Origin: a virus
Lineage: Duplodnaviria > Caudoviricetes
DNA: 64,000 bases
IMG/VR virus record: IMGVR_UViG_3300034062_005355
Reading direction: 5' to 3' (one strand)
A program made the position numbers and the translations under genes. The notes under the pieces are model-generated. The model searched no databases. It saw only the letters and a list, made by a program, of their open reading frames with translations, and had not been told where the DNA came from. This document shows, one piece after another, positions 2,668 to 51,589 of the stretch (positions are counted from its first letter, which is position 1; each line of letters starts with the position of its first letter).

Positions 2668-3108
2668 TTATCTAAAACTATGTGTATAAGACAATGCGTT
2701 CGTATTGAATACTCCATTTATAATAGTCAATAAAGGTACACTCCAAACATCCACACTTCCAAACAAACTCTCAAGCCTTTCATACATCTCATCAGATAAT
2801 ATAATGGTATCAAACTCTTTGTTATTTATATTAGGGGGATTATAACAAGGTTCAGGTAAATCACCTTTAAGTTCGGAAGGGTAATCACCATCATCATCGT
2901 AGTACTTACTATTAACCAATTTAAATAGATAATCGTTATATTCACTATCAGGTAGAACAAACCCTACAGCATAAGGGTCACAACAAACACCCATACCACA
3001 GTTAAATTCAGCCCAATCATAATAAGAATCATCAAATCCTTCAAATGACATATTAATGTAGTTGTGAATGACTTTAGTAAGTTTAGATTCTGTGATGGTT
3101 ACTTTCAT
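2668..3108 (-). CDS. MKxIITE-family protein
   Basis: MKVTITESKL start; TATTTAT motif at 3114-3120 (minus). Confidence 0.85.
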   Translation of the reverse strand: MKVTITESKLTKVIHNYINMSFEGFDDSYYDWAEFNCGMGVCCDPYAVGFVLPDSEYNDYLFKLVNSKYYDDDGDYPSELKGDLPEPCYNPPNINNKEFDTIILSDEMYERLESLFGSVDVWSVPLLTIINGVFNTNALSYTHSFR

Positions 3109-3923
3109 ATGAAATAAATATAAGAGTATGTGGTTAATGTGAAACTAATTCACTCACTCCATGGGTGTCTACTTCGTGACACCATTCCCTTCGTTCATTC
3201 CTTTCACATTCCCCCACCTTATAACTTGTCCCCACCAAACGACAAGACATATGACATGTGATGTAGTGGTTAGATAATATATAGTATAAAAAGACAATAT
3301 CCTACGGATAATAGATAACATACTATCTACGACCTAACCATATAGTGTGGGGAATGAGATGGACTCGTAAGATAAGACCTACGGTCTATGTTTATGTGAG
3401 TCCATTAGTCTCCCACTTATCACCACATGACTTGTCTCCACTATGAAGGGACATATAATATCCACCACGTATGGGGTTAAATAACCTATCGGTTCACTCC
3501 TATAGTCGGTCTTCGACACTCGTTGAAGGGGGATAAAATCCCTCTGTAACACTCACTACGTTCGTTTCACCGCCCATTACACTAGACACTCCTTTTTTAT
3601 CTGGAAAACGTATATAGTAAAAATATGGTCCTCACACTATCGTCAGGGGGAAAAAAGTGGTCATTATACTATCCACATAACCATATCGGTGGTAAAAAGT
3701 GGGGGATAGTGTAGTGACAGGAATACCACAAAAGGGGGTCAGGGGATTATCCCCATGCTAACGCGTCCCCTGACATTTTGACAAATCCAAATTTTTACCC
3801 CTAAAGTTACCCACATCCCCAAACTTTTTATCCCCCTGTCATAGTGTCATGTGGAAAAGTATATTTGTGGATAAGTTTATTTTATGTGTTCCGTAACCCT
3901 AATCTGTTCACTTTGTTCACAAT

Positions 3924-5127: not shown

Positions 5128-5496
5128 TGACATAACCAAACTAACTTGTCCACATCCCACTGTTGATAACTATAGGAGGGGTGTTTTTTATCCACACCGA
5201 CATAGGAGGGGTGGGGATAACTAACTTATCCACATACCCCTGTCATCCCCCCCTTTGGCATGGGGGTACACCCCCCTCCCCTCCCGTATCCCCCCTTACA
5301 TACTGTCAGAATGTCAGGTTAGGGGGGATAATCCCCTATATAACGACTTTAAAAATTTTGGGAAAAAATGTTCCCTTTTTTGACTATTTATCTTATAGTA
5401 AAACTTATGTATATGAAAAAGAATTTTTGTTTATTTGTTAAGAAAATTACTTTCGGGAAAGTTTGTCTCGGATGGTGTACAATTTAATTAACTTAA

Positions 5497-6014
5497 CCCC
5501 TCCCAACAGAGGGGTTTTTTATTTAAGTGAACCACCTAAGGATTTAAGTACACCACCTATGGGGAATAAGAGCACCAACCCTTTTTTTAAACCCCATAGT
5601 ATTTATTGAATATGAATCTACAAGATACCATAAGAAAAGTTCTTAAAGAAGAAATTAAATCATCTCTCAAACTTAGACGAGTGTTAAGTATGTTGGATTA
5701 TGAGGTTGAATATAGATTAAGTTCAATTTATAGACCAGATAACATATGTAGATATGAGAGTGGTGAAGAATTATTGGATGTGGTAGGTGAGGCCGCAATT
5801 GACTCAATGTATTATAAATATTTTGGTAATATGGATGATACTTCAAAAGAATGGGAAAGAACATATTATGATATGGTCCATTATATTGATATGAAATATG
5901 GTGAAAGAATAAAAGATTATTATAATAACAATTGCGAAAATAAAGTTTAATATCCCCCCTCCCAACAGAGGGGTTTTTTATTTAAGATCACCACCTATGG
6001 GGAATAAGAGCACC
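5497..6014 (+). repeat. Direct repeats flanking gene 5612-5950
   Basis: 31-bp terminator block at 5497-5527 and 5956-5986; 26-bp block at 5551-5576 and 5989-6014. Confidence 0.9.
5612..5950 (+). CDS. Hypothetical protein, MNLQxxIRKVLKEE N-terminus
   Basis: TATTTAT 5600-5606, ATG 5612. Confidence 0.8.
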   Translation: MNLQDTIRKVLKEEIKSSLKLRRVLSMLDYEVEYRLSSIYRPDNICRYESGEELLDVVGEAAIDSMYYKYFGNMDDTSKEWERTYYDMVHYIDMKYGERIKDYYNNNCENKV

Positions 6015-6112
6015 ACCCCTTGATTTAAGAACACGACCCCCTATTTCAATTTGGTCCTAAATCCTGAAAAAAAATTTTTGGAAAATTTTGGGGAAATGTC
6101 TATCTTTGTGGA

Positions 6113-6370
6113 ATGGAAAATTTATGGTCAAAGGCTCATCATTTTATTTTGGATTCCAAGGTGGGTGATTTTTATATGTCGGGGGATAAGAAGGTTTCGG
6201 TTGTTAGGAGAAGTCCAAAGAGGATATATTTTTCCAATGGGAACATCATCTCTATAAAAACCGTTAAGGATGATGTTCATGATTTTTTTTATTTGTCGGG
6301 AAAGAATATTGATAATATGTTAAGGGATATTGAAGGTTATTTTATCTATAAGATTCATAGTAAATTATAG
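6113..6370 (+). CDS. Hypothetical protein
   Basis: TATCTTTG promoter at 6101-6108. Confidence 0.75.
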   Translation: MENLWSKAHHFILDSKVGDFYMSGDKKVSVVRRSPKRIYFSNGNIISIKTVKDDVHDFFYLSGKNIDNMLRDIEGYFIYKIHSKL

Positions 6371-6415
6371 GTTGGGGTTTTTTATTGTATTTGGTTTGGG
6401 GATATTCGTAAACCT

Positions 6416-6466
6416 CCGACCACCCGAACTCCCTTCGGTCGGTTCAATCCCCCCGCCCCCTTTTTT
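6416..6466 (+). repeat. CCGAC hairpin element, copy 1
   Basis: 32 bp identical to 7626-7657; followed by C-run and T-run. Confidence 0.9.
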
Positions 6467-6517
6467 CTGGGTTATTTGTCTTTATGTTATAACCAATTAA
6501 ACAACCTTCCCCATCTT

Positions 6518-6584
6518 ATTATGTTTATGCCACACCCATTGGTTGCATATACGATATGAATATCGGGTATGCGATAGTTAGGTT
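6518..6584 (-). mobile_element. attC-like site, family 2, copy A
   Basis: 63 bp identical to 50684-50746; on minus, ACCTAAC directly follows the stop of 6584-6856; internal hairpin. Confidence 0.65.
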
Positions 6585-6856
6585 CAATCATTAATTTGTT
6601 TTGAGTTTTCAATATATTTTAAAACCAACAAACGAAAGATAAAAGTTTTGAACGGTATTATTTTATCTGATGGTATTTTATCACCAATCCAGCGAGTAAA
6701 CCATTTTTCATGCGGATATGTTAATAATGATTCTAAAAATCTATCATAACTCATTGCTCCCATACAAGAATCACAAGCTAAATCCATTGGCAACCACCAA
6801 TCAACGTATTCTTGATGTGCTATTTTTAAAATCTCTTCTTTTTCTATTTTATTCAT
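6584..6856 (-). CDS. Cassette-borne hypothetical protein
   Basis: Start re-called at ATG 6856 after TACCTTTG (6864-6871). Confidence 0.8.
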   Translation of the reverse strand: MNKIEKEEILKIAHQEYVDWWLPMDLACDSCMGAMSYDRFLESLLTYPHEKWFTRWIGDKIPSDKIIPFKTFIFRLLVLKYIENSKQIND

Positions 6857-6888
6857 ATTTTTACAAAGGTAAAACAAATTAATGACAA

Positions 6889-6943
6889 AACCTAACAAAT
6901 GATAAACAACATTAAAACGATTGTTTATTATCGGACGTTATAA
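6889..6943 (-). mobile_element. attC-like site, family 1, copy A
   Basis: TAAC...GTTA ends, ATAAACAA/TTGTTTAT stem; 48/49 identical to 51148-51196. Confidence 0.7.
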
Positions 6944-6949
6944 GTAATA

Positions 6950-7243
6950 TTATTTTTTGATACGTTCTGCGCAAAATTTACAATTCCCTTTGTGTGTTAA
7001 AACATCGCTATGAAATGCGTTTATGTATCCGATATATTCGCAACTATCAATAACGTATAATCTCATATTTCTTATGCCGTTTCCATCAGCAGCATCAATT
7101 TTATCAATAATTGGATAAATTTTGTCAATAGGTGTTAGATCCTGTTTTGGTGTTTCGCTTCCACAACCGAAAAAAATAACAGATACTAACAGCACATAAG
7201 TAAAGACAAAGTGTCTGTGGTAAATTGATGTTATCGTTTTCAT
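6950..7243 (-). CDS. Putative lipoprotein
   Basis: Hydrophobic leader ending FFGC; CEYI and HKGNCKFC motifs; promoter 7279-7286. Confidence 0.75.
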   Translation of the reverse strand: MKTITSIYHRHFVFTYVLLVSVIFFGCGSETPKQDLTPIDKIYPIIDKIDAADGNGIRNMRLYVIDSCEYIGYINAFHSDVLTHKGNCKFCAERIKK

Positions 7244-7339
7244 ATTATATTTGTTTTTAAATTAAATTTTTATCACAACAAATATAAGAAATAAATTTTG
7301 ATTTATCTATTTTTATAAAAAAATAACTACCTTTGTGTT

Positions 7340-7606: not shown

Positions 7607-7625
7607 TGGTGATATTCATATACCG

Positions 7626-7678
7626 CCGACCACCCGAACTCCCTTCGGTCGGTTCAAACCCCCCGCCCCCCTTTTTTT
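7626..7678 (+). repeat. CCGAC hairpin element, copy 2
   Basis: Identical 32-bp core to 6416-6447. Confidence 0.9.
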
Positions 7679-7679
7679 G

Positions 7680-7885: not shown

Positions 7886-8080
7886 CTATTTTTGTTTCAA
7901 TTCAAGTAAATCTTTTTCAAGTTGTTTTATGATTCTCTCCACCAAATAACTAATTTGTTCCATTCTGCTTCCTTCACCTTCATAGTAAGTAAATCCATGG
8001 TTTGTTAATGGATGGTATAACTTCCTAATCTCATTTAGTGCGGTTGCCTTTTTTTGTAATATAACTTGCTCTCGTGTCAT
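7886..8080 (-). CDS. Hypothetical protein
   Basis: Promoter caaaggta at 8103-8110. Confidence 0.75.
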   Translation of the reverse strand: MTREQVILQKKATALNEIRKLYHPLTNHGFTYYEGEGSRMEQISYLVERIIKQLEKDLLELKQK

Positions 8081-8200
8081 AATCAGTAAATTTTATTTTT
8101 AACAAAGGTATATATAAATTCGACATATCCAAATAAAAACCAACCTTTTTTTATTTAAAATAATTCATTATCTTTGTTGGGTTATCCTAAAAATAATGTT

Positions 8201-8659
8201 ATGGAAAAAATTTTAATTGATATTGAAGAAGAAATTTTAACAATTCCTTATGCCCATTTTGAAGACTGGGATATGTTGCAAGTATTCTTGAAAAGAAGAA
8301 AAAATCCTCCTTATAGAATAAGTGATAATTTGGATTTGGCAGGATCTTCGGTTGAATCTCTTGGAAACCTTGAATCGGTTGGTGGGTGGTTGAGTTTGGA
8401 GAAAACTAATATTAAATCTCTTGGAAATCTTGAATCGGTTGGAGGTAGTTTGTTTTTGTGTGATTCTTCAATTAAATCTCTTGGAAACCTTGAATCGGTT
8501 GGAGGTAACTTGGATTTGAGAGGAACTTCAATTAAATCTCTTGGAAACCTTGAATCTGTTGGAGGTAGTTTGTATTTGTATAGAACTCCAATCTCCAAAA
8601 AATATACCAGAGAAGAAATTAGATCGATGGTTAATCTTGGAGGTGATGTATATTTGTAG
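8201..8659 (+). CDS. Leucine-rich-repeat-like protein (SLGNLESVGG repeats)
   Basis: Four 22-aa/66-bp tandem repeats; promoter 8169-8176. Confidence 0.85.
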   Translation: MEKILIDIEEEILTIPYAHFEDWDMLQVFLKRRKNPPYRISDNLDLAGSSVESLGNLESVGGWLSLEKTNIKSLGNLESVGGSLFLCDSSIKSLGNLESVGGNLDLRGTSIKSLGNLESVGGSLYLYRTPISKKYTREEIRSMVNLGGDVYL

Positions 8660-10154: not shown

Positions 10155-10364
10155 ATGTGGACAGCTGACGCAATATTAAAACGTAGATTACATTTATCTA
10201 AAGATTATGAACACCCCGACCATATTCTTACTCTTGAAAAGGGGACCACGGTGACCATTACAAAAGGACGTGAACAGAAGTATTGTGTGTGGGGTCATTT
10301 TGGTCTATGGGACATTGATGAGACGTATATTGACGAAACAACAATTAAGATAATATCTAAGTAG
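10155..10364 (+). CDS. Hypothetical protein
   Basis: Operonic ORF. Confidence 0.7.
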   Translation: MWTADAILKRRLHLSKDYEHPDHILTLEKGTTVTITKGREQKYCVWGHFGLWDIDETYIDETTIKIISK

Positions 10365-10397
10365 GGGGAATAAATTCTTCTTTTTAACCAGTATGTT

Positions 10398-10431
10398 CCG
10401 CCGTTTCCGACCTTCGGTCGGTCCGAACTCC
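10398..10431 (+). repeat. Rearranged CCGAC hairpin element
   Basis: ccgacc-ttc-ggtcgg hairpin followed by ccgaactcc. Confidence 0.7.
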
Positions 10432-10493
10432 TTTGTTATATTGTCTCTTCATTTAGTGTCATCTTAAACAATGGTCGGGATATTTATTTGTAT

Positions 10494-10733
10494 ATGAAAT
10501 ATATCATCACAGAACAACAACAAGAAAATTTAATTTATGACTACTTGAATAAGTACATTGAGTCAGGTTGTGTCAAAATTAAAAAAGCTGGTAGATATAT
10601 GTCCGTTGATGTTGAAAGTCCAAGTTATTTTGAATGGAATGGATTTGATAGGTCTGATGCCTCTAAGATAAAAATATTTCTAAAAAAGAACTCATTCCAA
10701 TATGCGTTCGGAGATTACATCAAAGAATTTTAA
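10494..10733 (+). CDS. MKYIITE-family protein
   Basis: MKYIITEQQQ; TATTTAT 10481-10487. Confidence 0.85.
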   Translation: MKYIITEQQQENLIYDYLNKYIESGCVKIKKAGRYMSVDVESPSYFEWNGFDRSDASKIKIFLKKNSFQYAFGDYIKEF

Positions 10734-10737
10734 TAAC

Positions 10738-11154
10738 ATGAAAATCATCATAACCGAATCCAAAATGAATTCCACCATCTATAATTTTATAGATGAACTA
10801 TTTGCGTCAAAAGATGGGAATCCCGAAATTTTTAAACTTGACTCTTTTGATTCAGATGGAGCACCATTGATTGATGCATTTGATTTTGTGAATTCCGATT
10901 ATTATGGTGATGAGGGTTCAGATTACCTTTTTAGTTGGACAGGAAAAGAATATTATAAAACAATTTATGCTCAAGGTAATATAACCAAATTTGAATATGA
11001 AAGGATGATATTGGTATCACCTTTTGTTGAAATTATAGATAAAGATGCTATTGATTCTCTCAATGGTTATTTTGGTGATTTGTGGAAACCTGTATTCAAA
11101 CAATGGTTCAAAGATAAAACAGGATTGGATTATAAAACTTTAACTTTATATTGA
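10738..11154 (+). CDS. MKYIITE-family protein
   Basis: MKIIITESKM; C-terminal WFKDKTGL motif shared with paralogs. Confidence 0.85.
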   Translation: MKIIITESKMNSTIYNFIDELFASKDGNPEIFKLDSFDSDGAPLIDAFDFVNSDYYGDEGSDYLFSWTGKEYYKTIYAQGNITKFEYERMILVSPFVEIIDKDAIDSLNGYFGDLWKPVFKQWFKDKTGLDYKTLTLY

Positions 11155-11155
11155 T

Positions 11156-11482
11156 ATGAAATACATTATAACTGAGAGTAAAATGGAAAACATGATTAAG
11201 GAATATATTCTTAATGATGATAATGATGTTGTTGATGTTGAGTTTGGGACTCAGCGTATAATGTTAGGTTCAGGTCCAAATGAAAAGGGTGAAAGAATTG
11301 TGACACAAAAAATAATCATGGTAACCTTTGATAATGTTAAAAATAAAAAGACCTCAGGTGAATTAAGAGAAAGTACAAGAAAAATTGCAAAAACTCTTGA
11401 AGGTTTATTCGGGATTGATTTTAGAAGTTATGGTAGTGAGTGGGCTTTGAAATTCTATCAAATAAAAAAAGAAGAACTATAA
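11156..11482 (+). CDS. MKYIITE-family protein
   Basis: MKYIITESKM. Confidence 0.85.
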   Translation: MKYIITESKMENMIKEYILNDDNDVVDVEFGTQRIMLGSGPNEKGERIVTQKIIMVTFDNVKNKKTSGELRESTRKIAKTLEGLFGIDFRSYGSEWALKFYQIKKEEL

Positions 11483-11490
11483 CATGAAAT

Positions 11491-11826
11491 ATGCCGCCAA
11501 GAAGACGAAGATTATTAAAATATATTATGGATAAAGAAGAAGTAGAAAACGCAATTAATAAATTAATGTCATTAATTAAACCTGATGAGGTTACGGAAGT
11601 TGCGTTTGAATTACCACACTCATCACCAGATTCATTTACAATGAATGTGGTTTTTGTTGTACCTGATGAGTGGATTAAATCTATGGATGAATATGAACGT
11701 CCTTTGGCTCTTATCCATTTTGTTCAACATATAAGAAAACAAATTAAAAATTATTTGGGAATTAATATTGTTATTCCAAAAGGTGACAGTAGAATTGTTA
11801 AAGAAAGTGATTGGTATAAAATATGA
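11491..11826 (+). CDS. Hypothetical protein in MKYIITE array
   Basis: ORF; likely start MDKEEV; ATGA overlap downstream. Confidence 0.75.
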   Translation: MPPRRRRLLKYIMDKEEVENAINKLMSLIKPDEVTEVAFELPHSSPDSFTMNVVFVVPDEWIKSMDEYERPLALIHFVQHIRKQIKNYLGINIVIPKGDSRIVKESDWYKI

Positions 11827-12143
11827 AATACATTATAACAGAAAATAGATTAAACAATATTGTATTCAAATATTTGGATATGAAATATGGCGCTCTTGAA
11901 CAAAAAAAAGGAAAGTATAGTGATATTATTTTTGATTTTCCTGATGAAGAATATGGTATATTAGGATGGGAAAAATCAGGAAATTTATATGTTTTTCACA
12001 AATTAAGGGACGAAATTTCCAAATATTTTGGACTGGATAACAACGATTCCCTAAGGGTTATAGGTAAGTGGGTTGAAGATAGATACAATTTGAAGGTCAT
12101 AAACACCAATGGGCAAAGTATGTATTACCTCGCCCGTGGTTGA
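11823..12143 (+). CDS. MKYIITE-family protein
   Basis: MKYIITENRL; 3' end overlaps repeat array. Confidence 0.85.
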   Translation: MKYIITENRLNNIVFKYLDMKYGALEQKKGKYSDIIFDFPDEEYGILGWEKSGNLYVFHKLRDEISKYFGLDNNDSLRVIGKWVEDRYNLKVINTNGQSMYYLARG

Positions 12144-12240
12144 AGATAGATACAATTTGAAGGTCATAAACACCGTCCGGCTAGGGTTCCATCTTTGGTA
12201 ATATGTTGAAGATAGACACAATTTAAAGTTAATAATAACA
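12072..12240 (+). repeat. CRISPR-like mini-array: three 36-nt repeats, two unique spacers
   Basis: GTTGAAGATAGATACAATTTGAAGGTCATAAACACC identical at 12072 and 12139, degenerate at 12205; spacers 31 and 30 nt. Repeat is certain, CRISPR identity is not. Confidence 0.85.
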
Positions 12241-12596
12241 TGAAATACATAATAACAGAAAGTAAAATTAACAAATTTGTATCCAATTATTTGGATGGAC
12301 AAAAATGGTATACATGGGATATTGGAGATGGTGAATTTAATGTTGCCGATGAAGAATATGGAAAAGACATTATTCATTATAGAATCCAAGAATCAATTAC
12401 GGTTCCTGACCGTATGTTTGATTTAATTTATGTTGATGGTATGTTTGTTACAAGGTTATCCAAATTATTTGGTTTGGAGGCTGTTAGGGATGTTAATCCG
12501 TTAGTTGTTAATTGGTTTAATAAAAAATATAATAAAAACTTAAACAAAGACGATTGGGAGTGGATGGATGAAGAAGATGAAGAAGAAGATTTTTAA
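12240..12596 (+). CDS. MKYIITE-family protein
   Basis: MKYIITESKI. Confidence 0.85.
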   Translation: MKYIITESKINKFVSNYLDGQKWYTWDIGDGEFNVADEEYGKDIIHYRIQESITVPDRMFDLIYVDGMFVTRLSKLFGLEAVRDVNPLVVNWFNKKYNKNLNKDDWEWMDEEDEEEDF

Positions 12597-12599
12597 ACA

Positions 12600-12674
12600 A
12601 TGAAATACATTATAACAGAATCACAATATAAATTAAAAGGATGGGGGTTTTTTATTTATGGGGTATTTATGTAA
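12600..12674 (+). pseudogene. Truncated MKYIITE-family stub (24 aa)
   Basis: MKYIITESQYKLKG then runs into half-terminator ggatgggggtttttt. Confidence 0.6.
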
Positions 12675-19405: not shown

Positions 19406-19416
19406 TATTTAACAAT

Positions 19417-19806
19417 ATGAAATATATTATTACAGAATCAAAATTAGAACGGGTAATTACTGGTTATATTAATGAATTATTCCCAATTGATGAGATTAAT
19501 TATACACATCCTGATGCTTATGATGATGAGTACGGAGAAGTATATGAGGACAAAAATATGGTTCAGTTTTATCTTGGCAATTATGATGAAGGTGAAAACA
19601 ATATTTTTTTGTGGTTAGGTTCAGAATATTTTGAAAAAAATAGTTCAGCAAGAGATCGTAGCCCAACTATAGTCGTTGAACACCCTTACGATGACACACT
19701 AATCGCATATTTTAATGACCAATGGGAGGAACCATTTAAAAAATGGTTTACAGAAAATTTTGACTTACCTGTTAAAACCGTTGAGTGGAAAAGAATGATT
19801 GATTAA
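19417..19806 (+). CDS. MKYIITE-family protein
   Basis: MKYIITESKL; KKWFTENFDLPVKTV C-terminus. Confidence 0.85.
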   Translation: MKYIITESKLERVITGYINELFPIDEINYTHPDAYDDEYGEVYEDKNMVQFYLGNYDEGENNIFLWLGSEYFEKNSSARDRSPTIVVEHPYDDTLIAYFNDQWEEPFKKWFTENFDLPVKTVEWKRMID

Positions 19807-24418: not shown

Positions 24419-27400
24419 ATGTCATTCTCAAGACCATTTACATATAATCCATCACCTAATCCACTAATTAATGGTACTGAACAAGTTGGTAGTTTAGCAG
24501 TTGGAACACCAACATCAGGATTTACAAATAATCCACAATTTTGGAACGGACCTGACGAAGCGTTGGGGTATGTTATTGCTTATCCTGTTTCAGGAGGAAC
24601 TCATCCAACACCAATTTCGGGTGTAACAGCATATCTTGGTTTTAAAGGAACCAAAAACATGACTAATCCATTAAGTGAATCAACATTTGTGGAATTGGTT
24701 AACAGTTCATTTAATCAAAGTTTCACAAATGGGGACGAGGCTTCATATTATTTATTGAGTGAAGGATATTGGACATCTTACCCCTACACACCACTTTTCT
24801 CAGTTCAATTTTTTGAGTCAGGTTCTGATGTAATATTATCTTATGAGGGTCGACTTAACTTAGATGGTTTAGATTTTGTTGAAAGTGGTTCTTTAGGATT
24901 CGGTGGTGGAGTAGTACCAAATGTTGGTGTATTTCTAAATCAAGACGTAAATGGTTTTTCAGCATACGGTGGAGCCACGTTTAATGTCCCAACCTCTTTT
25001 GGTTCAGGAGAGGGGGGTGTTTCAGATTTGGGTAGTGGTAATAGTTTTGGTGTGTTTAACCCGTACGGCAGTTATTTTCTTTTAGTTCCTACGGGATATA
25101 CATCGTTTGAAGATTATATCCAAGGGTCATTATTATTTACAGGACAAACACTTACAAGTTTGGGAATGAATACTGGCACATACAACTATAGTTGGGGGGG
25201 ATACTTGGGACAATCATTTGTTCTTACAATTGGAGGACCAGCTCCAACACCAACACCAACAGGGACAATTGCGGTTACACCAACTAATACACCAACACCA
25301 ACTAATACACCTACAGGAACTGCGGCTGAAACGCCAACTCCTACACCTACAGGTACACCTGCTGAAACACCAACAGGAACTGCGGCGGCAACTCAAACAC
25401 CATCAGTTACACCAACATTAACACAAACACCAACTCCAACTGATTTAAGTGCGATTACCACTTACACCATCTCAGGATGTAGTAGTTCAAATGTTATTGT
25501 CGCTGATTTAGGACCAGGAGCATTTTTCCCTGGTGATACATTCTATTTGGACTTTACAGGAGCGACTGCAACTGAATGTTACACAATTATCAATAAAATC
25601 AACGCAACACCTACAGATGGTGGTAACCCAATATCTTCCTATCCTAATTGTGCCGATTGTATTGACGGAACAACCACAACTTACACAATTTCAGGATGTA
25701 CTACTTTGAATGTATTAGTCGCTGATTTAGGACCAGGAGCATTCGGTGCTGGTGATATATTCAACATGACATTTACAGGAGCAACTCCAAGTGGATGTTA
25801 CAGAATTGTCAATAAGATTGTTGCTACCCCAACAGATACAGGAGCACCACTAACTTTCTATTTTAATTGTGATGATTGTGAGGCTTCATTGGTAACACCA
25901 ACACCTACGGCAACACCAACAAATACTGAAACTCCAACTGAGACTCCTACACCTACGGTAACAGAAACTCCAACAGGAACACCATCTGTAACAGAAACAC
26001 CAACTGAGACTCCTACACCGACAGTGACGGAAACTCCGACAGGAACACCAGCGGTAACACCAACAAATACGGAAACACCAACTGAGACTCCTACACCGAC
26101 AGTAACTGAAACACCAACTAATACTCCAACAGAGACGGAAACACCAACACCAACTCCGACAGGAACAATTGGAGCGACACCTACTGAAACGGAAACTCCT
26201 ACTCCAACACCAACTGAGACTCCAACAGGAACTCCATCGGTGACAGAAACACCAACTGAGACTCCAACAGGAACTCCTGAGGTAACACAAACAAATACTC
26301 CAACAAATACGGAAACACCAACTGAAACTCCTACACCAACTCCGACTGAAACTCCAACAGGAACACCATCGGTAACACCAACAAATACAACTACACCTAC
26401 TACAACACCTTCAGTATGTACTCCTACCGCAACGCAAAACGTGGCGGGTGTTGATGGATTAACAGGATTTTTCTTTGGTGGATTCCCAACACCACTTGGA
26501 ATAGTTCAAGTTGGATGGTATGCTAATGGACCTGGTGTTTTAGACGCATTGGTCACTAATATTGATAGTGTGAATCAAAATATTACTATAGCTCCAGGAA
26601 ACGGAGTATTTGTTTCTGGTAGTTTCTATACTTTCTGTAACGCACCTCAATTCCCTAATGTTACACCAACATCGACTCCAACTGAGACGGAAACTCCTAC
26701 TCCTACACCAACAAATACTGAGACTCCGACTAATACTCCAACTGAAACACCTACAAATACACCAACCAATACGCCTACTGAAACTCCAACACCTACTCCA
26801 ACTGAAACACCTACCGAGACTCCTACTGAAACTCCTACTGAAACTCCTACTGAAACTCCAACAAATACTCCAACTGAAACACCAACTGTAACCGAAACTC
26901 CAACAGGAACACCAACAGGAACACCAGAAGCAGAAACTCCTACTCCTACACCAACAAATACTGAGACTCCGACTAATACTCCAACTGAAACACCTACAAA
27001 TACACCAACCAATACGCCTACAGAAACTGAAACACCTACTCCAACTCCTACGAATACAGAAACTCCAACCAATACTCCAACTGAAACAGAAACTCCAACT
27101 GAAACACCAACTAATACTCCAACAGGAACACCAGAAGCAGAAACTCCTACTCCTACACCGACAGTAACTGAAACTCCAACTAATACTCCTACACCAACTG
27201 TAACAGAAACTCCAACAAATACGCCTACTAATACTACAACCACCACACCTTCAGTTACACCAACAAACAGTATTAATGGTAGTGCGTTGTTCAATGATAC
27301 TAATTTCCTTACTATAAGTGGAAACACAGGTACTGCTATGGGAATAGGTGATTTTACTTGGGAGTGTTGGGTTTATCCGACTAGTAGTTTAGGATTTCAA

Positions 27401-28828
27401 ACATTTATAGACACTAGAACAAATCCACTTAGTGGTGGTGATACTACAGGTTATTATTTTGGTACAAATAATAACACATTAACTCCTATGGTTTATACAA
27501 ATGGCATTCTTTTACAATCAACAAACAACATAACATTAAATGGATGGAATCACGTTGCGTTGACTAAAGTAAGCGGAACCTTAAATATTTGGATAAATGG
27601 TGTTAATAGTGGTAGTGTCTCAGATGCGTTTACAAATTTGACAAACCAAAGAATACTCATCGGAGGTGCCGCTGCCAACTCGGCAGCATTAACTTTAACA
27701 GGAAACCTTAGTAATATTCGTATTACAAAAGGAGTTGCGGTCTACACGGCAAACTTTACTAAACCAACAACTAACTTTACCGTAACTCAATCAGCAAATG
27801 TTAATGGTAATCCATCGGCAGCAATTACGTCAGGACAAACCCAAGTATTATTAAACACTAATTTTGGTGGTGGATTCTTAACAGATACTTCTACCAATAA
27901 CTTTACTGTAGTAAATAATAACGGAGTGACGAGTTCGACTTTTGAGCCATTTACTCCTATTCCATTCCCAACACCAACTCCAACTAATACTCCTACTAAC
28001 ACCGCAACTCCAACACCAACAACAACCGAGACTCCTACAGAAACTCCAACAAATACTCCTACACCGACAGTAACAGAAACTCCAACAAATACTCCTACAC
28101 CTACTAATACTGAAACACCAACTAATACTCCTACACCAACAAATACTGAAACTCCTACACCAACTATAACTGAAACACCAACTAATACTCCTACACCAAC
28201 TATAACTGAAACACCAACTAATACTCCTACACCAACTATAACTGAAACACCAACTAATACTCCTACACCAACTATAACTGAAACTCCAACAAATACTCCT
28301 ACACCAACTATAACTGAAACTCCTACTGAAACACCAACAAATACTCCAACACCAACAGTAACTCCTACATCGGGAGTAACAGGTGATTTTAATATAACCA
28401 TTTCACAAGTAACAGGCCCTAACGTTGTATGGTCAGGTTCGGGTTCATTTAATTTAAGTGGTTTAACATCTGGTGGAAGTCCAAGTGGTCTTGCAGTGTC
28501 TGAAGTATCAAACGGACTTTGGATAGTAGGACCAACAGGATCTATTAATTTTAATGCATACAATGGTGTGACAACATTCCCATCTAACTTTGGAACAGGA
28601 GGTACATTTTTCCCTGACTCAGGTTCAGGAAGTTTTGGTATAGTATCAAATGAAACAAACAGAACTTTATTAGTACCTACAGGATATGTCTCAGGTGACT
28701 TTATAATTGGTACTTCAACATATGAAGGTGAAACACTTATATCTATGGGATTAAGTGCAGGAGATATATTCACTTGGAGTTGGGGTTCAGGAGAAAATAC
28801 AAGTACAATAGTGATGAGTATCATATAA
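24419..28828 (+). CDS. Large Pro/Thr-repeat fibre/adhesin-like protein with LamG-like domain
   Basis: TPTxT tracts separating globular modules; [10 protein letters not shown]...WNHVALTK...NIWING LamG; duplicated Cys-rich and beta modules. Confidence 0.85.
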
Positions 28829-28859: not shown

Positions 28860-29114
28860 ATGAAAAAATTTTTTAGCAACTTATTTAACGACAATAACTC
28901 AATTAATGAAAAGGCGGTTATCGGATTTATGGCATTTACAATGATGTGCATGTTCGCAGTAGTTGACATCATAACAGGCGCAATGAATAAACCACTATTG
29001 ATTAATGAGTTTATTTTTGATTCATTTAAATTTATCACAATTGCTTGTTTTGGTATTGCATCCGTTGATAAGTTCATCAACCTGACAAAAGGTAAAAACG
29101 AAGACGAAGAGTAA
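28860..29114 (+). CDS. Two-TM membrane protein (possible holin)
   Basis: Two hydrophobic helices, charged C-terminus; TATTTAT 28833-28839. Confidence 0.6.
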   Translation: MKKFFSNLFNDNNSINEKAVIGFMAFTMMCMFAVVDIITGAMNKPLLINEFIFDSFKFITIACFGIASVDKFINLTKGKNEDEE

Positions 29115-29173
29115 CTTACTAATCCCCACTCACAAGGTGGGGATTTTTGTTATTATCAAGTATTTATTGAGAT

Positions 29174-48845: not shown

Positions 48846-49044
48846 ATCTTAATTTTATTTTATCGTAATCGGTATCATACCACTCACCATTCTCTTGTTT
48901 ATGTTCTCTGATAAGTTGTGCTAATAGGATTTCGCACAACCCTACTTCTGAACAGTCTCCTTTATCCCAACCCATCCAATTTTGTTTTGTTATTGGGTCT
49001 TCCATATTTAATAGTGATTCTATTTGGTCTCTTCTTTTATTCAT
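48838..49044 (-). CDS. Hypothetical protein
   Basis: 8-nt ATGAATAA overlaps at both ends. Confidence 0.7.
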   Translation of the reverse strand: MNKRRDQIESLLNMEDPITKQNWMGWDKGDCSEVGLCEILLAQLIREHKQENGEWYDTDYDKIKLRYE

Positions 49045-49381
49045 AACTTTCTAATTTAGTATCGTTGTATGTTATTGTGATTAGTTTTCGTGGATATAGT
49101 GTTGTACTTCCTTTGAGTACTGGGTTGGTTTGATCTACTTGTTCCAATGTTGTTCGTTCTTCAATCTTTAATCCCCACCTTTCAGAAAACTCTGTATCGG
49201 TTTTACATTTGTTGATGAATTCTTCTTGTGTATGATGAATATAATTTGGATAACCTGAGTTAAATTCTAGTCCATTTGATTTGAAATGTTTTTCTCTTTC
49301 CGAGAAAGTAATAGAACCTATTAATGCTTTTGTGTAATTCACATAAACCTCATCCAATAATTCTTGTTGTTCTTTATTCAT
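49037..49381 (-). CDS. MNKEQQELLD paralog 1
   Basis: Shared FSERWGLKIEER and KLITITYND. Confidence 0.85.
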   Translation of the reverse strand: MNKEQQELLDEVYVNYTKALIGSITFSEREKHFKSNGLEFNSGYPNYIHHTQEEFINKCKTDTEFSERWGLKIEERTTLEQVDQTNPVLKGSTTLYPRKLITITYNDTKLESYE

Positions 49382-49584
49382 AACTTTCTATTGTTAGTTG
49401 TTTCTGGTATTTTATTAATAAATGACTTCATTATATTTGGTATAGTATTTGTTTCATCGTATATCACATCATACTCACCATTATTAGACATTATCTTTAC
49501 AAATTCGTCAGATTCTTCTTTTGTTTTTTTTGCGGGAGTTCCATCCATATTAGTAACCCCACAAAATATAATCGGTTTATTCAT
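49378..49584 (-). CDS. Hypothetical protein
   Basis: Between paralogs, coupled overlaps. Confidence 0.7.
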   Translation of the reverse strand: MNKPIIFCGVTNMDGTPAKKTKEESDEFVKIMSNNGEYDVIYDETNTIPNIMKSFINKIPETTNNRKL

Positions 49585-49930
49585 AACTTTCTATTGTTTT
49601 ATCGTTGTATGTTATTGTGATTAGTTTGGTTGGGATATTCCATTTATCATAATCTTCGTGTGTACATAGATTATCACCAATCCATTTATAGTTTAATATA
49701 CCATCATTTGTTTCTTTAGGGTGTCTTTTAATATATTCATCACATCTTTCATCTCTGCTCAACTCTCGTTCCTCAATCTTTAATCCCCACCTTTCAGAGA
49801 ACTCTGTATCGGTTTTACACTTGTTGATGAATTCTTCTTTTTTAAGAGATTCTACTTGAGTAGACATTCCGGCAACGATTGAATAATTTTTATATGCCTC
49901 ATCCAATAATTCTTGTTGTTCTTTATTCAT
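49577..49930 (-). CDS. MNKEQQELLD paralog 2
   Basis: As paralog 1. Confidence 0.85.
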   Translation of the reverse strand: MNKEQQELLDEAYKNYSIVAGMSTQVESLKKEEFINKCKTDTEFSERWGLKIEERELSRDERCDEYIKRHPKETNDGILNYKWIGDNLCTHEDYDKWNIPTKLITITYNDKTIESYE

Positions 49931-50285
49931 AACTTTCTATTGTTTTATCGTTGTATGTTATTGTGATTAGTTTGGTTGGTACATTGTGTTTGTCGCACAT
50001 ATAATTAGCAAAATCAAATTCTTCCATATTAGGTGTTAGGTCGGCTATCTTCCATCTTTCCATCATATCTAACTCTCGTTCCTCAATCTTTAACCCCCAC
50101 TTTTCAGAGAATGTTTTATCGTAAGTACATAAATCAACAAACATTTCTTTGTTGGGTTTTCGGTAGGTTGATTTACCATCCAGTCGTTTAACTAAAAGAC
50201 ACATCCCAATAGAATTATCTTTTTCATATTCCTTTGAATAATTCTCATAAGCAACATCCAATAATTCTTCTTGTTCTTTATTCAT
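49923..50285 (-). CDS. MNKEQEELLD paralog 3
   Basis: Start re-called at 50285. Confidence 0.85.
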   Translation of the reverse strand: MNKEQEELLDVAYENYSKEYEKDNSIGMCLLVKRLDGKSTYRKPNKEMFVDLCTYDKTFSEKWGLKIEERELDMMERWKIADLTPNMEEFDFANYMCDKHNVPTKLITITYNDKTIESYE

Positions 50286-50287
50286 AA

Positions 50288-50662
50288 TTAATCTTTTGTA
50301 TCTGTTATTTCGTAATGTAATAACGCAAACCATAAGTTCTGCAACTGGTGGACGTACTTTATATCAAATGAAATTGGATATTTTATCCCATCATCTTTTG
50401 GGTTAGCACTATCTGTATATTCTTGATAGAAAGACCAGTTTTTAGCCCAATCCCTATATCTGAAACAGAACTTATAATCGTATATTCCTCTACACCAATA
50501 TTCACCATCTATATAAAATCTAAATTTGGTAAACCATTCATCAGTTAGTGGTATACCTTTAATATGGGATAAATCTGATTCCATACTTACACCTTTAATT
50601 TCAAGTATACCACCTAAATTATCAAATACATAATTCCCAATTCTTAATTCTGTTGATTTCAT
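50288..50662 (-). CDS. Phage protein of MKxxELRIGN type
   Basis: ELRIGNYV, IPLTDEW, IKYVHQLQNL. Confidence 0.8.
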   Translation of the reverse strand: MKSTELRIGNYVFDNLGGILEIKGVSMESDLSHIKGIPLTDEWFTKFRFYIDGEYWCRGIYDYKFCFRYRDWAKNWSFYQEYTDSANPKDDGIKYPISFDIKYVHQLQNLWFALLHYEITDTKD

Positions 50663-50683: not shown

Positions 50684-50750
50684 ATTATGTTTATGCCACA
50701 CCCATTGGTTGCATATACGATATGAATATCGGGTATGCGATAGTTATATT
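50684..50750 (-). mobile_element. attC-like site, family 2, copy B
   Basis: 63 bp identical to 6518-6580; ends GTTATATT. Confidence 0.65.
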
Positions 50751-50764
50751 CAATATCAAAAATT

Positions 50765-51121
50765 TTATGGTTTTATAGAAATTGAATTAAACCACTTGAG
50801 TTCAGATGTTAATTCATTCAACTTACCTTCGTATTTAACTATTTTATTTTCGTTCAATGGTTCGGATATTTTATAACCACCATCAATCTTTATATGTTTA
50901 GTTTCTTTTTGATTTAGTTTGGAATGAATATTACCAATCCTCTCATTTATTGATTTAACATTCATATCAATAACCCATCTAACATCATCTATATTATGTT
51001 TAGATAATTCTTCAACAACTCCATTCCATTTAGTAATGAGTTTTGTTTCTAAATCAAAAACTAAACCACGTTGTCCGCCAAGACAACCATCTTCTTCAAA
51101 CCATTCAATTTCTTTTTTCAT
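50765..51121 (-). CDS. Cassette-borne hypothetical protein
   Basis: Flanked by GTTATATT (50743) / AATATAAC (51144). Confidence 0.8.
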   Translation of the reverse strand: MKKEIEWFEEDGCLGGQRGLVFDLETKLITKWNGVVEELSKHNIDDVRWVIDMNVKSINERIGNIHSKLNQKETKHIKIDGGYKISEPLNENKIVKYEGKLNELTSELKWFNSISIKP

Positions 51122-51143
51122 ATGTATAAATTTTTTGATACTA

Positions 51144-51201
51144 AATATAACAAATGATAAACAACATTAAAACGATTGTTTATCATCGGACGTTATGTGT
51201 A
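51144..51201 (-). mobile_element. attC-like site, family 1, copy B
   Basis: TAAC-aaa-TGATAAACAA...TTGTTTATCA-tcggac-GTTA. Confidence 0.7.
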
Positions 51202-51218
51202 ATAAATTAATTTTTATG

Positions 51219-51512
51219 TTATTTTTGATTTAAAACCATTCTCGAAAGTGATTTACCAATTACACCCCAATTATTCTTAAAAAAATCTTCACCTTCTGGA
51301 GAGTTGTTCCAAAACATAAACCCATCACTCTTTTCAATCTCTTTCATTATATTAAGTGATTTTTCAACAGTTATTTCATCTGTTCGTAGTTCCAAAGGAA
51401 CATTTCTACCAATTTGTACCACACCATTTTTATCTTTATAAGTGTATCCAACCAAACCCATTGGTAAATCACAAAAAACTAAGTTCTTAAAATAAATTTC
51501 TCTTGTTGTCAT
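51219..51512 (-). CDS. Cassette-borne hypothetical protein
   Basis: Flanked by GTTATGTGTA (51192) / TACACATAAC (51550); own promoter 51526-51533. Confidence 0.8.
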   Translation of the reverse strand: MTTREIYFKNLVFCDLPMGLVGYTYKDKNGVVQIGRNVPLELRTDEITVEKSLNIMKEIEKSDGFMFWNNSPEGEDFFKNNWGVIGKSLSRMVLNQK

Positions 51513-51549
51513 AATATTTTTTTTTCAAAGGTATAAAAATTAATTTACA

Positions 51550-51589
51550 TACACATAACAAATGATAAACAACATTAAAACGATTGTTT
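51550..51589 (-). mobile_element. attC-like site, family 1, truncated copy C
   Basis: 34 bp (51556-51589) identical to copy B, then breaks off at the next gene's stop. Confidence 0.65.

Follow-up and report, generated by a model that had tools for sequence, protein, structure and literature searches.

The stretch of DNA analysed (64 kb from a lake-water phage, hereafter the window) has a G+C content of about 30% and is dense with small ORFs; scans of the entire 64 kb with Rfam and for tRNA genes gave no matches. Two regions of the window, lying at positions 6518–7314 (locus A) and 50684–51589 (locus B), each contain two small genes set between repeated elements of two types, named family-1 and family-2. 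At locus A the order is family-2 element, cassette 1, family-1 site, cassette 2 and a truncated site. The features of locus A are:

6518–6580, plus strand: family-2 element at the start of the array; imperfect hairpin GCATATACGATAT / ATATCGGGTATGC, followed by GATA and a GTTA half-core
6577–6896, minus strand: cassette 1, from GTTA to TAAC; arms at 6577–6602 and 6871–6896
6584–6856, minus strand: orphan gene of cassette 1, 90 aa; its ATG is closely preceded by a -7-box-like TACCTTTG
6893–6940, plus strand: family-1 hairpin site, made up of TAAC, AA, stem ATGATAAACAA, loop CATTAAAACGA, stem TTGTTTATTAT, CGGAC and GTTA
6937–7276, minus strand: cassette 2, starting with GTTATAAG; its right core is degenerate (TCAC in place of TAAC)
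6950–7243, minus strand: gene of cassette 2, a small lipoprotein of 97 aa with a signal peptide and the lipobox FFGC
7273–7314, plus strand: truncated long-loop site at the right border of the array; left half only

Those of locus B are:

50684–50746, plus strand: second family-2 copy, 63/63 identical to 6518–6580
50743–51151, minus strand: cassette with ATTC-type arms of about 26 nt; gene at 50765–51121
51148–51195, plus strand: complete family-1 site, a 48/49 match to the locus A copy
51192–51559, minus strand: cassette with GTGT-type arms of about 26 nt; gene at 51219–51512
51556–51589, plus strand: family-1 copy ending at TTGTTT; the 3′ stem and GTTA are missing

Locus B thus follows the plan of locus A, and its array also ends in a half-site. 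A preliminary description of this DNA had pointed out that the same two site families enclose unrelated genes at the two loci, which proved to be so, all the genes being on the minus strand. The perfect identity it gave for the family-2 copies (63 of 63 positions) was reproduced, the match ending exactly at both ends of the element. The 48/49 identity claimed for the family-1 copies holds for 6893–6941 against 51148–51196, but the frame 6889–6943 chosen for it was off by a few bases. The locus A copy carries one C>T change in its 3′ stem relative to the consensus. A 32-mer core of family-1 occurs exactly three times in the window (at 6895, 51150 and 51558), while none is expected from shuffled sequences. 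Three cassettes had also been credited with self-matching ends of 8–10 bp. GTTAGGTT (6577–6584) and AACCTAAC (6889–6896) are indeed exact complements, and both sister cassettes at locus B have arms of their own sequence; these 8-mers, however, are the tips of arms of about 26 nt rather than complete 8–10 bp repeats. In cassette 1, 23 of the 26 positions match between the inverted repeats at 6577–6602 and 6871–6896. Its stop codon (TGA, 6584–6586, minus strand) directly adjoins ACCTAAC on the coding strand, as first described, and the cassette ends fit RYYYAAC/GTTRRRY. The right border of the array (7273–7314) matches the left half of complete sites present in the phage locus L006 and at positions 5333–5410 of L203, a 7.7-kb metagenome contig, and its sequence also closes the L203 array (at about 6745–6790).

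The 90-aa protein of cassette 1 had no relative in Pfam, PHROGs, the Atlas or viral contigs, and the two cargo proteins of locus B (50765–51121 and 51219–51512) gave no family match. The 97-aa lipoprotein of cassette 2 belongs to a viral family, and viral contigs encode 78 relatives of it; the leads obtained from the Atlas were clusters of viral lipoproteins with DUF6440/LPAM_1. That this lipoprotein acts in exclusion at the envelope is only a guess.

Sites and cassettes in other phages

A 30-mer core of the family-1 site was found without mismatches in at least 117 IMG/VR stretches, on contigs of 6 to 464 kb. In a set of 185,579 species genomes, exact matches were limited to two small contigs from MAGs, so that, judged from these searches, the element appears to be essentially phage-restricted. 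The closest cultured relatives at the DNA level were phages of Polaribacter and Olleya. A detector for such sites recovered 468 of them in 1.38 Mb of fetched loci, as against 0–1 per shuffled 64 kb. Applied to the window, it identified two complete sites and one probable terminator at 29112–29152 (shuffled versions, 0–1); locus A was resolved as one complete site plus two half-sites. Sites are co-oriented within loci (421 of 426), and the ORFs of the cassettes lie on the opposite strand (181 cases vs 9). In 77 loci chosen solely for encoding relatives of the cassette 2 lipoprotein, all 70 sites were on the strand opposite that gene. In lake metagenomes, family-1 was sequenced to a depth about 20 times that of its neighbours.

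Read on the plus strand, a site between cassettes consists of TAAC, 1–2 nt (A or AA), a stem of 11–20 bp, a loop, the complementary stem, 4–5 nt (commonly CAACC, AAAAC or CGGAC) and GTTA. A cassette runs from GTTA-N4 through (C/T)AAT, an arm of about 15 nt, the reversed gene, the complementary arm and ACWA to N4′-TAAC; YAAT and ACWA face each other in the arms as a fixed mismatch bubble. Covariation of the stems is observed directly, at least 15 different and perfectly complementary 11-bp stems being found around one and the same loop, CATTAAAACGA. The predicted fold of family-1 as single-stranded DNA is weak (-4 to -8 kcal/mol, with z-scores between -0.4 and -2.1); the argument for a structure therefore rests on covariation, not on energy. 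Complementarity of the cassette arms reached at least 18 of 26 positions in 55 of 121 cassettes, compared with 38 of 536 mismatched control pairings. Mismatches in the stems were mostly A.C on the plus strand, which corresponds to G.T/G.U on the mRNA-sense strand (110 vs 27), with the qualification that these counts come from a few large families and are concentrated at two positions. The pairing registers of the stems differ between site families, and a count of pairs in a fixed register was thus unusable.

The loops of some sites contain more than a hairpin requires. Long-loop sites hold full Bacteroidota-type promoters (TTTG-N19/20-TAnnTTTG), and some loops carry, along with promoters, the start codon and N-terminal codons of the next gene. 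In L119 and L124, codons for the signal peptide of the cassette 2-like lipoprotein form the 3′ stem of the site, and in L201 a whole ORF of 69 aa lies within a single site. Empty cassettes were found as well, with the form GTTAT-N4-CATTAAAACGA-N4′-ATAAC. About seven sites are hybrids, with a 5′ stem from one family and a 3′ stem from another (e.g. L203, 5177–5224). In other phages, the GGTT-type arms of cassette 1 surround unrelated ORFs, at least six in number, and every one of these ORFs reads into the arm and ends in the arm-encoded SKQIND*; the presence of unrelated genes within identical arms suggests that further exchange takes place inside cassettes. The 462-kb phage LR756500 is among the SKQIND* carriers. 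A function in expression, besides one in recombination, is quite possible for the hairpins.

Exchange of cassettes at the cores

The 322 cassettes collected from fetched viral and metagenome DNA fell into 249 clusters. Comparing the same cassette in two contexts showed identity to be lost 0–6 nt beyond GTTA in 10 of 15 cases. On the TAAC side, the break came 1–2 nt after this core in 5 of 14 comparisons, or else at the distal end of the neighbouring site. Three clusters (0, 6 and 51) each comprised one cassette with different sites on both of its sides. Exchange points are thus observed at both ends of the hairpin sites. The search for clean insertion/deletion pairs among the fetched loci yielded mostly ordinary gene indels unrelated to the sites.

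The content of locus A itself was found to differ in a relative. Contig L203 is 85–89% identical to the window over 5385–6580 and 8114–8592, so that both sides of the locus are syntenic, and it shares with locus A both the left border, formed by a GC-rich element and family-2, and the right border, TTATCACAACAAATATAAGAAATAAATTTTGAT. The 4 kb enclosed by them in L203 comprise about ten cassettes, neither of the window's two being among them. The preliminary description had inferred gene swapping between fixed sites and had proposed looking for alternative genes by aligning the locus with relatives or metagenomes. That alignment, one of three independent tests that support the inference, produced the expected result in L203, with the same borders around about ten other cassettes; the other two are the breaks of identity at the cores and the finding, in lake DNA, of cassette 2 beside a different neighbour. 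In the latter case, contigs from the lake runs of 2016 and 2023 bridged the arrangement seen in the window, and in the runs of 2020 and 2024 cassette 2 (6936–7304, with no differences) was located behind 16–17 letters of another site (...CATATACACCCAAC), the switch occurring at 6936, the C before GTTA. This alternative context may reflect an inserted block of cassettes, or a second phage with the same cassette; in both cases one unit is seen beside a new neighbour, with the break located at the core.

Across 20 lake runs from 2016 to 2024, locus A itself looks unchanged, which means that no activity was seen there. A metagenome joint between 7314 and 6577 that includes 33 extra letters was considered as a possible circle junction. 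It was not counted as an excision product, since the extra letters are foreign to the window and L006-like phages show the arrangement too. Two classes of mobile element were also rejected. A transposon with terminal inverted repeats does not account for arms that vary by cassette and are common to unrelated genes, and no transposase is linked to them; for an element of the IS200/IS605 or REP/RAYT type, no HUH enzyme was seen, the linked enzyme being a tyrosine recombinase.

The recombinase of related arrays and the start of the array

Three of five array-bearing records encode one tyrosine recombinase of 267–272 aa directly adjoining the array; in L201, a 267-aa form is encoded at 10282–11085. 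The sites of all 25 fetched loci that contain the recombinase are confined to the DNA 5′ of its start codon and are carried on the strand opposite the gene; the distance to the nearest complete site ranges from 20 to 1092 nt. The reverse test gave the same picture: in 80 loci picked by homology to the recombinase alone, the upstream DNA contained 260 sites on the opposite strand and 4 on the strand of the gene, as against 5 sites downstream, and 54 of the 59 recombinase loci with at least 1.2 kb of upstream DNA have a site. The linkage of the enzyme to the arrays is therefore observed from either starting point. Its best match in the PDB was an XerC-like protein (3e-30), followed by VchIntIA (2a3v; 1e-27, in two blocks). 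The NCBIfam models for XerA and for integron integrases matched below their cut-offs (for TIGR02249, 153.8 bits against a cut-off of 265). The enzyme belongs to the Xer/IntI clade but is not a classical integron integrase. It has 41 aa where IntI4 has 89, which indicates that the IntI-specific insert is absent. No homologue of a tyrosine recombinase was detected in the window, tblastn at E≤10 returning only noise; this concerns the 64 kb alone and not the whole genome.

Between the ATG of the recombinase and the first GTTA, the relatives have an AT-rich, non-hairpin junction of about 55 nt that ends in ...TATATAATATA|GTTA. The family-2 element occupies the position of this recombinase-proximal junction and is of approximately the same length; it starts (ATTATGT...) where the relatives have the recombinase start codon. 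It opens the array in four of four independent copies (window loci A and B, and twice in L203), which fits the earlier suggestion that family-2 is a terminal site, and it lacks a distal TAAC/GTT core on its left side, as that suggestion had it. Because its sequence resembles the junction only weakly, family-2 can be regarded as a putative array-initial, attI-like element by position only. Its hairpin had no exact match in IMG/VR, and among the fetched loci it had no relative beyond the cassette arms. Family-2 was present in four metagenome contigs: two were 100% and one 95.6% identical to the window, the fourth being L203. To judge by this identity, the three window-like contigs would come from the same or a near-identical phage.

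The absence of a recombinase from the 64 kb, the half-sites in which both arrays end and the unchanged state of the locus in the lakes together point to an orphan array. Positions 6518–7314 look like an orphan, recombinase-less array of two cassettes belonging to a phage-borne integron-like system.

Interpretation and comparison with known systems

The explanation that we consider probable is that locus A is a two-cassette array, without a recombinase, of a phage integron-like system in whose other members an enzyme of the Xer/IntI clade exchanges cassettes at the cores. It builds on the observed anatomy, the covariation of the stems, the exchange points at the cores, the different content found at the same locus and the linkage to a recombinase. 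Each cassette consists of one small gene with its own promoter-like box, bounded by GTTA-N4 and N4′-TAAC, and the 267-aa recombinase of relatives is encoded at a fixed end of the array. This enzyme would most probably cut and rejoin at the TAAC/GTTA cores, at the foot of folded hairpins, resulting in insertion, excision and swapping. The arrays of the window would then be frozen leftovers, or might be served in trans from outside the window. Catalysis of the exchange by the recombinase is inferred, as is a substrate of folded single-stranded DNA, and no experiment links the enzyme to the sites. Several observations run counter to this explanation. The 64 kb contain no homologue of the recombinase, and the locus shows no change over the lake runs. 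The exchange at both site ends and the hybrid sites are not predicted by a single G|TT crossover, the identical arms around unrelated genes suggest additional exchange within cassettes, and the G.U-compatible mismatches would also fit a role at the RNA level. An integron-type single crossover was rejected as the whole story on account of the breaks at both ends of the sites.

A more general reading is conceivable, although we advance it only tentatively. Sites and cassettes might be one kind of object, i.e. hairpin modules of alternating polarity joined at GTTA/TAAC, with cargo in either loop. Promoter, 5′ leader, the five final codons and the stop codon would all come from the arms, making the module a natural plug-in expression vector, and the enzyme would exchange modules at both hairpin feet, perhaps using both strands. 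The empty cassettes, the genes in site loops, the six SKQIND* ORFs, the hybrid sites and the exchange at both site ends all fit this reading. If true, any ORF placed between arms would become an expressed, mobile gene, and the recombination logic would be distinct from that of integrons, with a possible view of the origin of integrons from Xer systems.

The promoter-early stem-loops (PeSLs) of T4-type phages reportedly act by homologous recombination between motifs, with no dedicated recombinase. Shuffling of this type, in which the intergenic blocks would be regulatory cassettes moved by short-homology recombination between co-infecting phages without an enzyme of their own, would make sense of the full Bacteroidota-type promoters in long-loop sites, of the sites that supply the next gene with its start codon and N-terminal residues, and of the identical 26-nt arms around unrelated ORFs. 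Hybrid sites would result from exchange in the shared loop; exchange points on both sides of sites, and the many arrays without a nearby recombinase, locus A included, would also be in keeping with it. We nevertheless regard it as unlikely. At many exchange points only the core of 4–5 nt is shared, with unrelated sequence right beside it, which is too little for homologous recombination, and the fixed end and orientation of one small recombinase, seen in both directions of testing, are not predicted.

Still harder to sustain is a role at the RNA level only, in which the hairpins and arms would terminate transcripts, stabilise them or, as RNase III-type processing stalks, loop out each ORF, their spread being due to selection rather than to mobility. 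The predominance of G.U-compatible stem mismatches on the mRNA-sense strand, the arms, through which the 5′ flank of each ORF would pair with its 3′ flank, and the conservation of the loop on one strand are what such a role would lead one to expect. It does not explain, however, why the same cassette turns up in different contexts, with identity lost at the cores, why a recombinase is linked to the arrays or why 30 nt are identical across unrelated phages of 6–464 kb; in addition, the family-1 fold is weak and no T run follows the stem on the coding strand. The features that depart from those of integrons keep both PeSL-like shuffling and an RNA-level role alive as partial truths. Plain segmental duplication within the genome, or chance similarity of AT-rich intergenic DNA, might be suspected from the mere two or three copies in a window of 30% G+C, but can practically be dismissed given that shuffled sequences give no matches, that identity stops exactly at the element ends while the enclosed genes differ, and that hundreds of copies exist in other phages.

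If the mechanism proposed for the integron-like system holds, Bacteroidota phages would have their own platform for gene capture and shuffling, based on a minimal Xer-like recombinase and spanning hundreds of uncultured phages, from 6-kb fragments to contigs of more than 400 kb. It would explain how small orphan genes, with likely functions in host takeover, exclusion or counter-defence, move between unrelated phages. It would also mean that the IntI-specific domain is dispensable for recombining cassettes through folded hairpins, a point relevant to how integrons arose. To this, locus A adds a comparison at the same locus, population data from lakes and a set of non-integron features. For annotation purposes, 6518–7314 and 50684–51589 can be designated orphan cassette arrays, and their four small genes accessory cargo absent from a close relative.

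A survey of 10,705 phage genomes with IntegronFinder and HattCI reported three classical integrons and 17 small CALINs (Qi et al. 2023, PMC9892861). The same work found two divergent attC sites in the Polaribacter phage P12002L, and describes neither a small Xer-like enzyme nor a hairpin site of TAAC/GTTA design. Our literature search found no paper on hairpin arrays with a small Xer-like recombinase in phages, and the gene-shuffling system is apparently undescribed.

PeSLs were presented as ‘mobile regulatory cassettes’ (Arbiol et al. 2010, PMC2839356; Comeau et al. 2014, PMC4122927). They are the nearest analogue among regulatory cassettes; the resemblance lies in the small orphan genes found in variable regions of large phages, and in the promoter plus stem-loop motifs that flank genes and mark the borders of insertions, deletions and replacements. 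The arrays described here differ in their invariant, inverted 4-nt cores, in the complementary arms specific to each cassette and in the tyrosine recombinase at the array end; the hosts and the type of promoter (Bacteroidota -33/-7 boxes) are also different. The definition of a PeSL, a T4-type sigma-70 early promoter with a terminator in a T4-like myovirus, is not met by elements with TTTG ... TAnnTTTG boxes, a conserved 11-nt loop and TAAC/GTTA cores.

Sites of the pdif type are double-stranded, span 28 bp and serve the XerC/XerD enzymes of the host. Like the pdif modules of Acinetobacter plasmids (PMC9771954), the phage arrays contain gene modules with short cores in alternating inverted orientation and involve Xer-type recombinases. 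Unlike in pdif, their cores are located at the feet of hairpins with unequal spacers (1–2 vs 4–5 nt), and the enzyme is encoded by the phage.

The system also has parallels with integrons. Arrays of mostly single-gene cassettes with very high diversity are typical of integrons and CALINs, in which orphan arrays lacking the enzyme also exist. Shared with integrons, too, are imperfect, asymmetric hairpin sites with inverse-core/core ends (xxTAAC ... GTTAxx), the complementarity between the start of a cassette and the inverse core at its other end and, in the phage relatives, an Xer/IntI-clade tyrosine recombinase that occupies one array end, beside a non-hairpin junction ending in GTTA. For a CALIN, the model of IntegronFinder has to call two or more attC sites with no intI close by; by our own detector, locus A has one complete site and two half-sites, with no recombinase in the 64 kb. 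As for attC, the phage sites have a hairpin, unequal spacers (1–2 vs 4–5 nt) and an invariant TAAC/GTTA, but common phage cores such as ATATAAC/GTTATAT do not fit RYYYAAC/GTTRRRY. Other differences concern the enzyme. With 267 aa, it lacks the IntI-specific insert between patches II and III and does not meet that requirement, and its gene is co-oriented with those of the cassettes and located downstream of them. Integron cassettes are mostly promoterless and expressed from a common Pc, a criterion that is not met here: just before their start codons, both the phage cassettes and the long-loop sites have -7 boxes (TAnnTTTG), in some instances together with TTTG at -33 (as motifs only, in the absence of transcript data). 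The complementary cassette ends extend over about 26 nt and include a fixed 4x4 bubble, the sequence of the loop is conserved, and the sites can hold promoters, start codons or whole genes. The exchange points at both site ends and the hybrid sites depart from the rule that a cassette travels with its own attC through a single G|TT crossover, and the system is essentially phage-restricted. Strict membership in the integrons is thus not supported; the system is integron-like only.

Different genes within the same cassette ends

The self-complementary ends (arms) of the first cassette of locus A, the two-cassette array at 6518-7314, belong to a type named GGTT. The same 26 nt enclose at least six ORFs that have no relationship to one another, in the following cassettes:

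Window, 6577-6896: cassette 1 of locus A
Viral or metagenome locus L001, about 3000-3250: cassette with GGTT-type arms
L014, L016 and L059: cassettes with GGTT-type arms
L045/L056/L093/L071: cassettes with GGTT-type arms

All ORFs inside these arms share a C-terminal pentapeptide and stop codon (SKQIND*), because each of them reads in frame into the arm.

Composite hairpin sites, and abundance of the family-1 site

Hairpin sites were also found in which the 5′ stem of one family and the conserved loop are followed by the non-complementary 3′ stem of another family:

L203 (a 7.7-kb metagenome contig syntenic with locus A), 5177-5224: hybrid hairpin site
L104, L080, L034, L053 and L070: hybrid hairpin sites

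Judged from sequence alone, these hybrids imply that exchange is also possible in or beside the loop. Contig depths were added up across window 6852-6955 in the lake metagenome runs X16, X18, X20 and X4. The family-1 site, the hairpin site between cassettes, reached about 20-fold the depth of the cassettes beside it; the element is therefore carried by many co-occurring genomes of the same lakes.

Other repeated sequences, at the array borders and elsewhere

A GC-rich element of 73 nt flanks locus A:

Window, 6397-6469 and 7607-7679: two copies, 90% identical, one on either side of locus A
L203, 2541-2614: one copy, at the left border of the array, the same place as in the window

It consists of a CCGACC...GGTCGG hairpin, the sequence GGTTCAAxCCCCCCGCCCCC and then a run of T. 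Neither ARAGORN nor Rfam gave a call for this element, which may be a terminator or may be akin to tRNA-shaped RNAs.

Immediately adjoining the family-2 (array-initial) copy of the sister array, locus B, lies a series of small paralogous minus-strand genes (49036-50662) that have 5′ ends and internal blocks in common (repeat families D9, D11, D12 and D15). Near-identical ATGAAATACATTATAACAGAA leaders (MKYIITE) open several genes at 10731-12620 and 19410-19448 (families D14 and D17), and a 1469-aa ORF (24419-28828) is rich in periodic repeats of 12 to 36 nt (families D1-D4) encoding Thr/Pro-rich stretches.

Promoters and coding sequence in site loops

Some site loops are 90-150 nt long and contain a promoter as well as the 5′ end of the gene downstream, namely its start codon and initial 11-18 codons:

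L119, 300-430: site with coding sequence in its loop
L124, 2432-2557: the same
L203, 6385-6535 and 6673-6760: the same, two sites

The GTTA core of these sites falls inside the downstream gene, since the 3′ stem lies within coding sequence. In the window, a Bacteroidota promoter of textbook form (TTTG, 19 nt, TACCTTTG) is present at 8085-8135 (minus strand), upstream of the gene at 7886-8080, and other phages carry the same promoter module (ACAAAGGTA...GACATxTCCAAATAAAA) within the loops of their long-loop sites.
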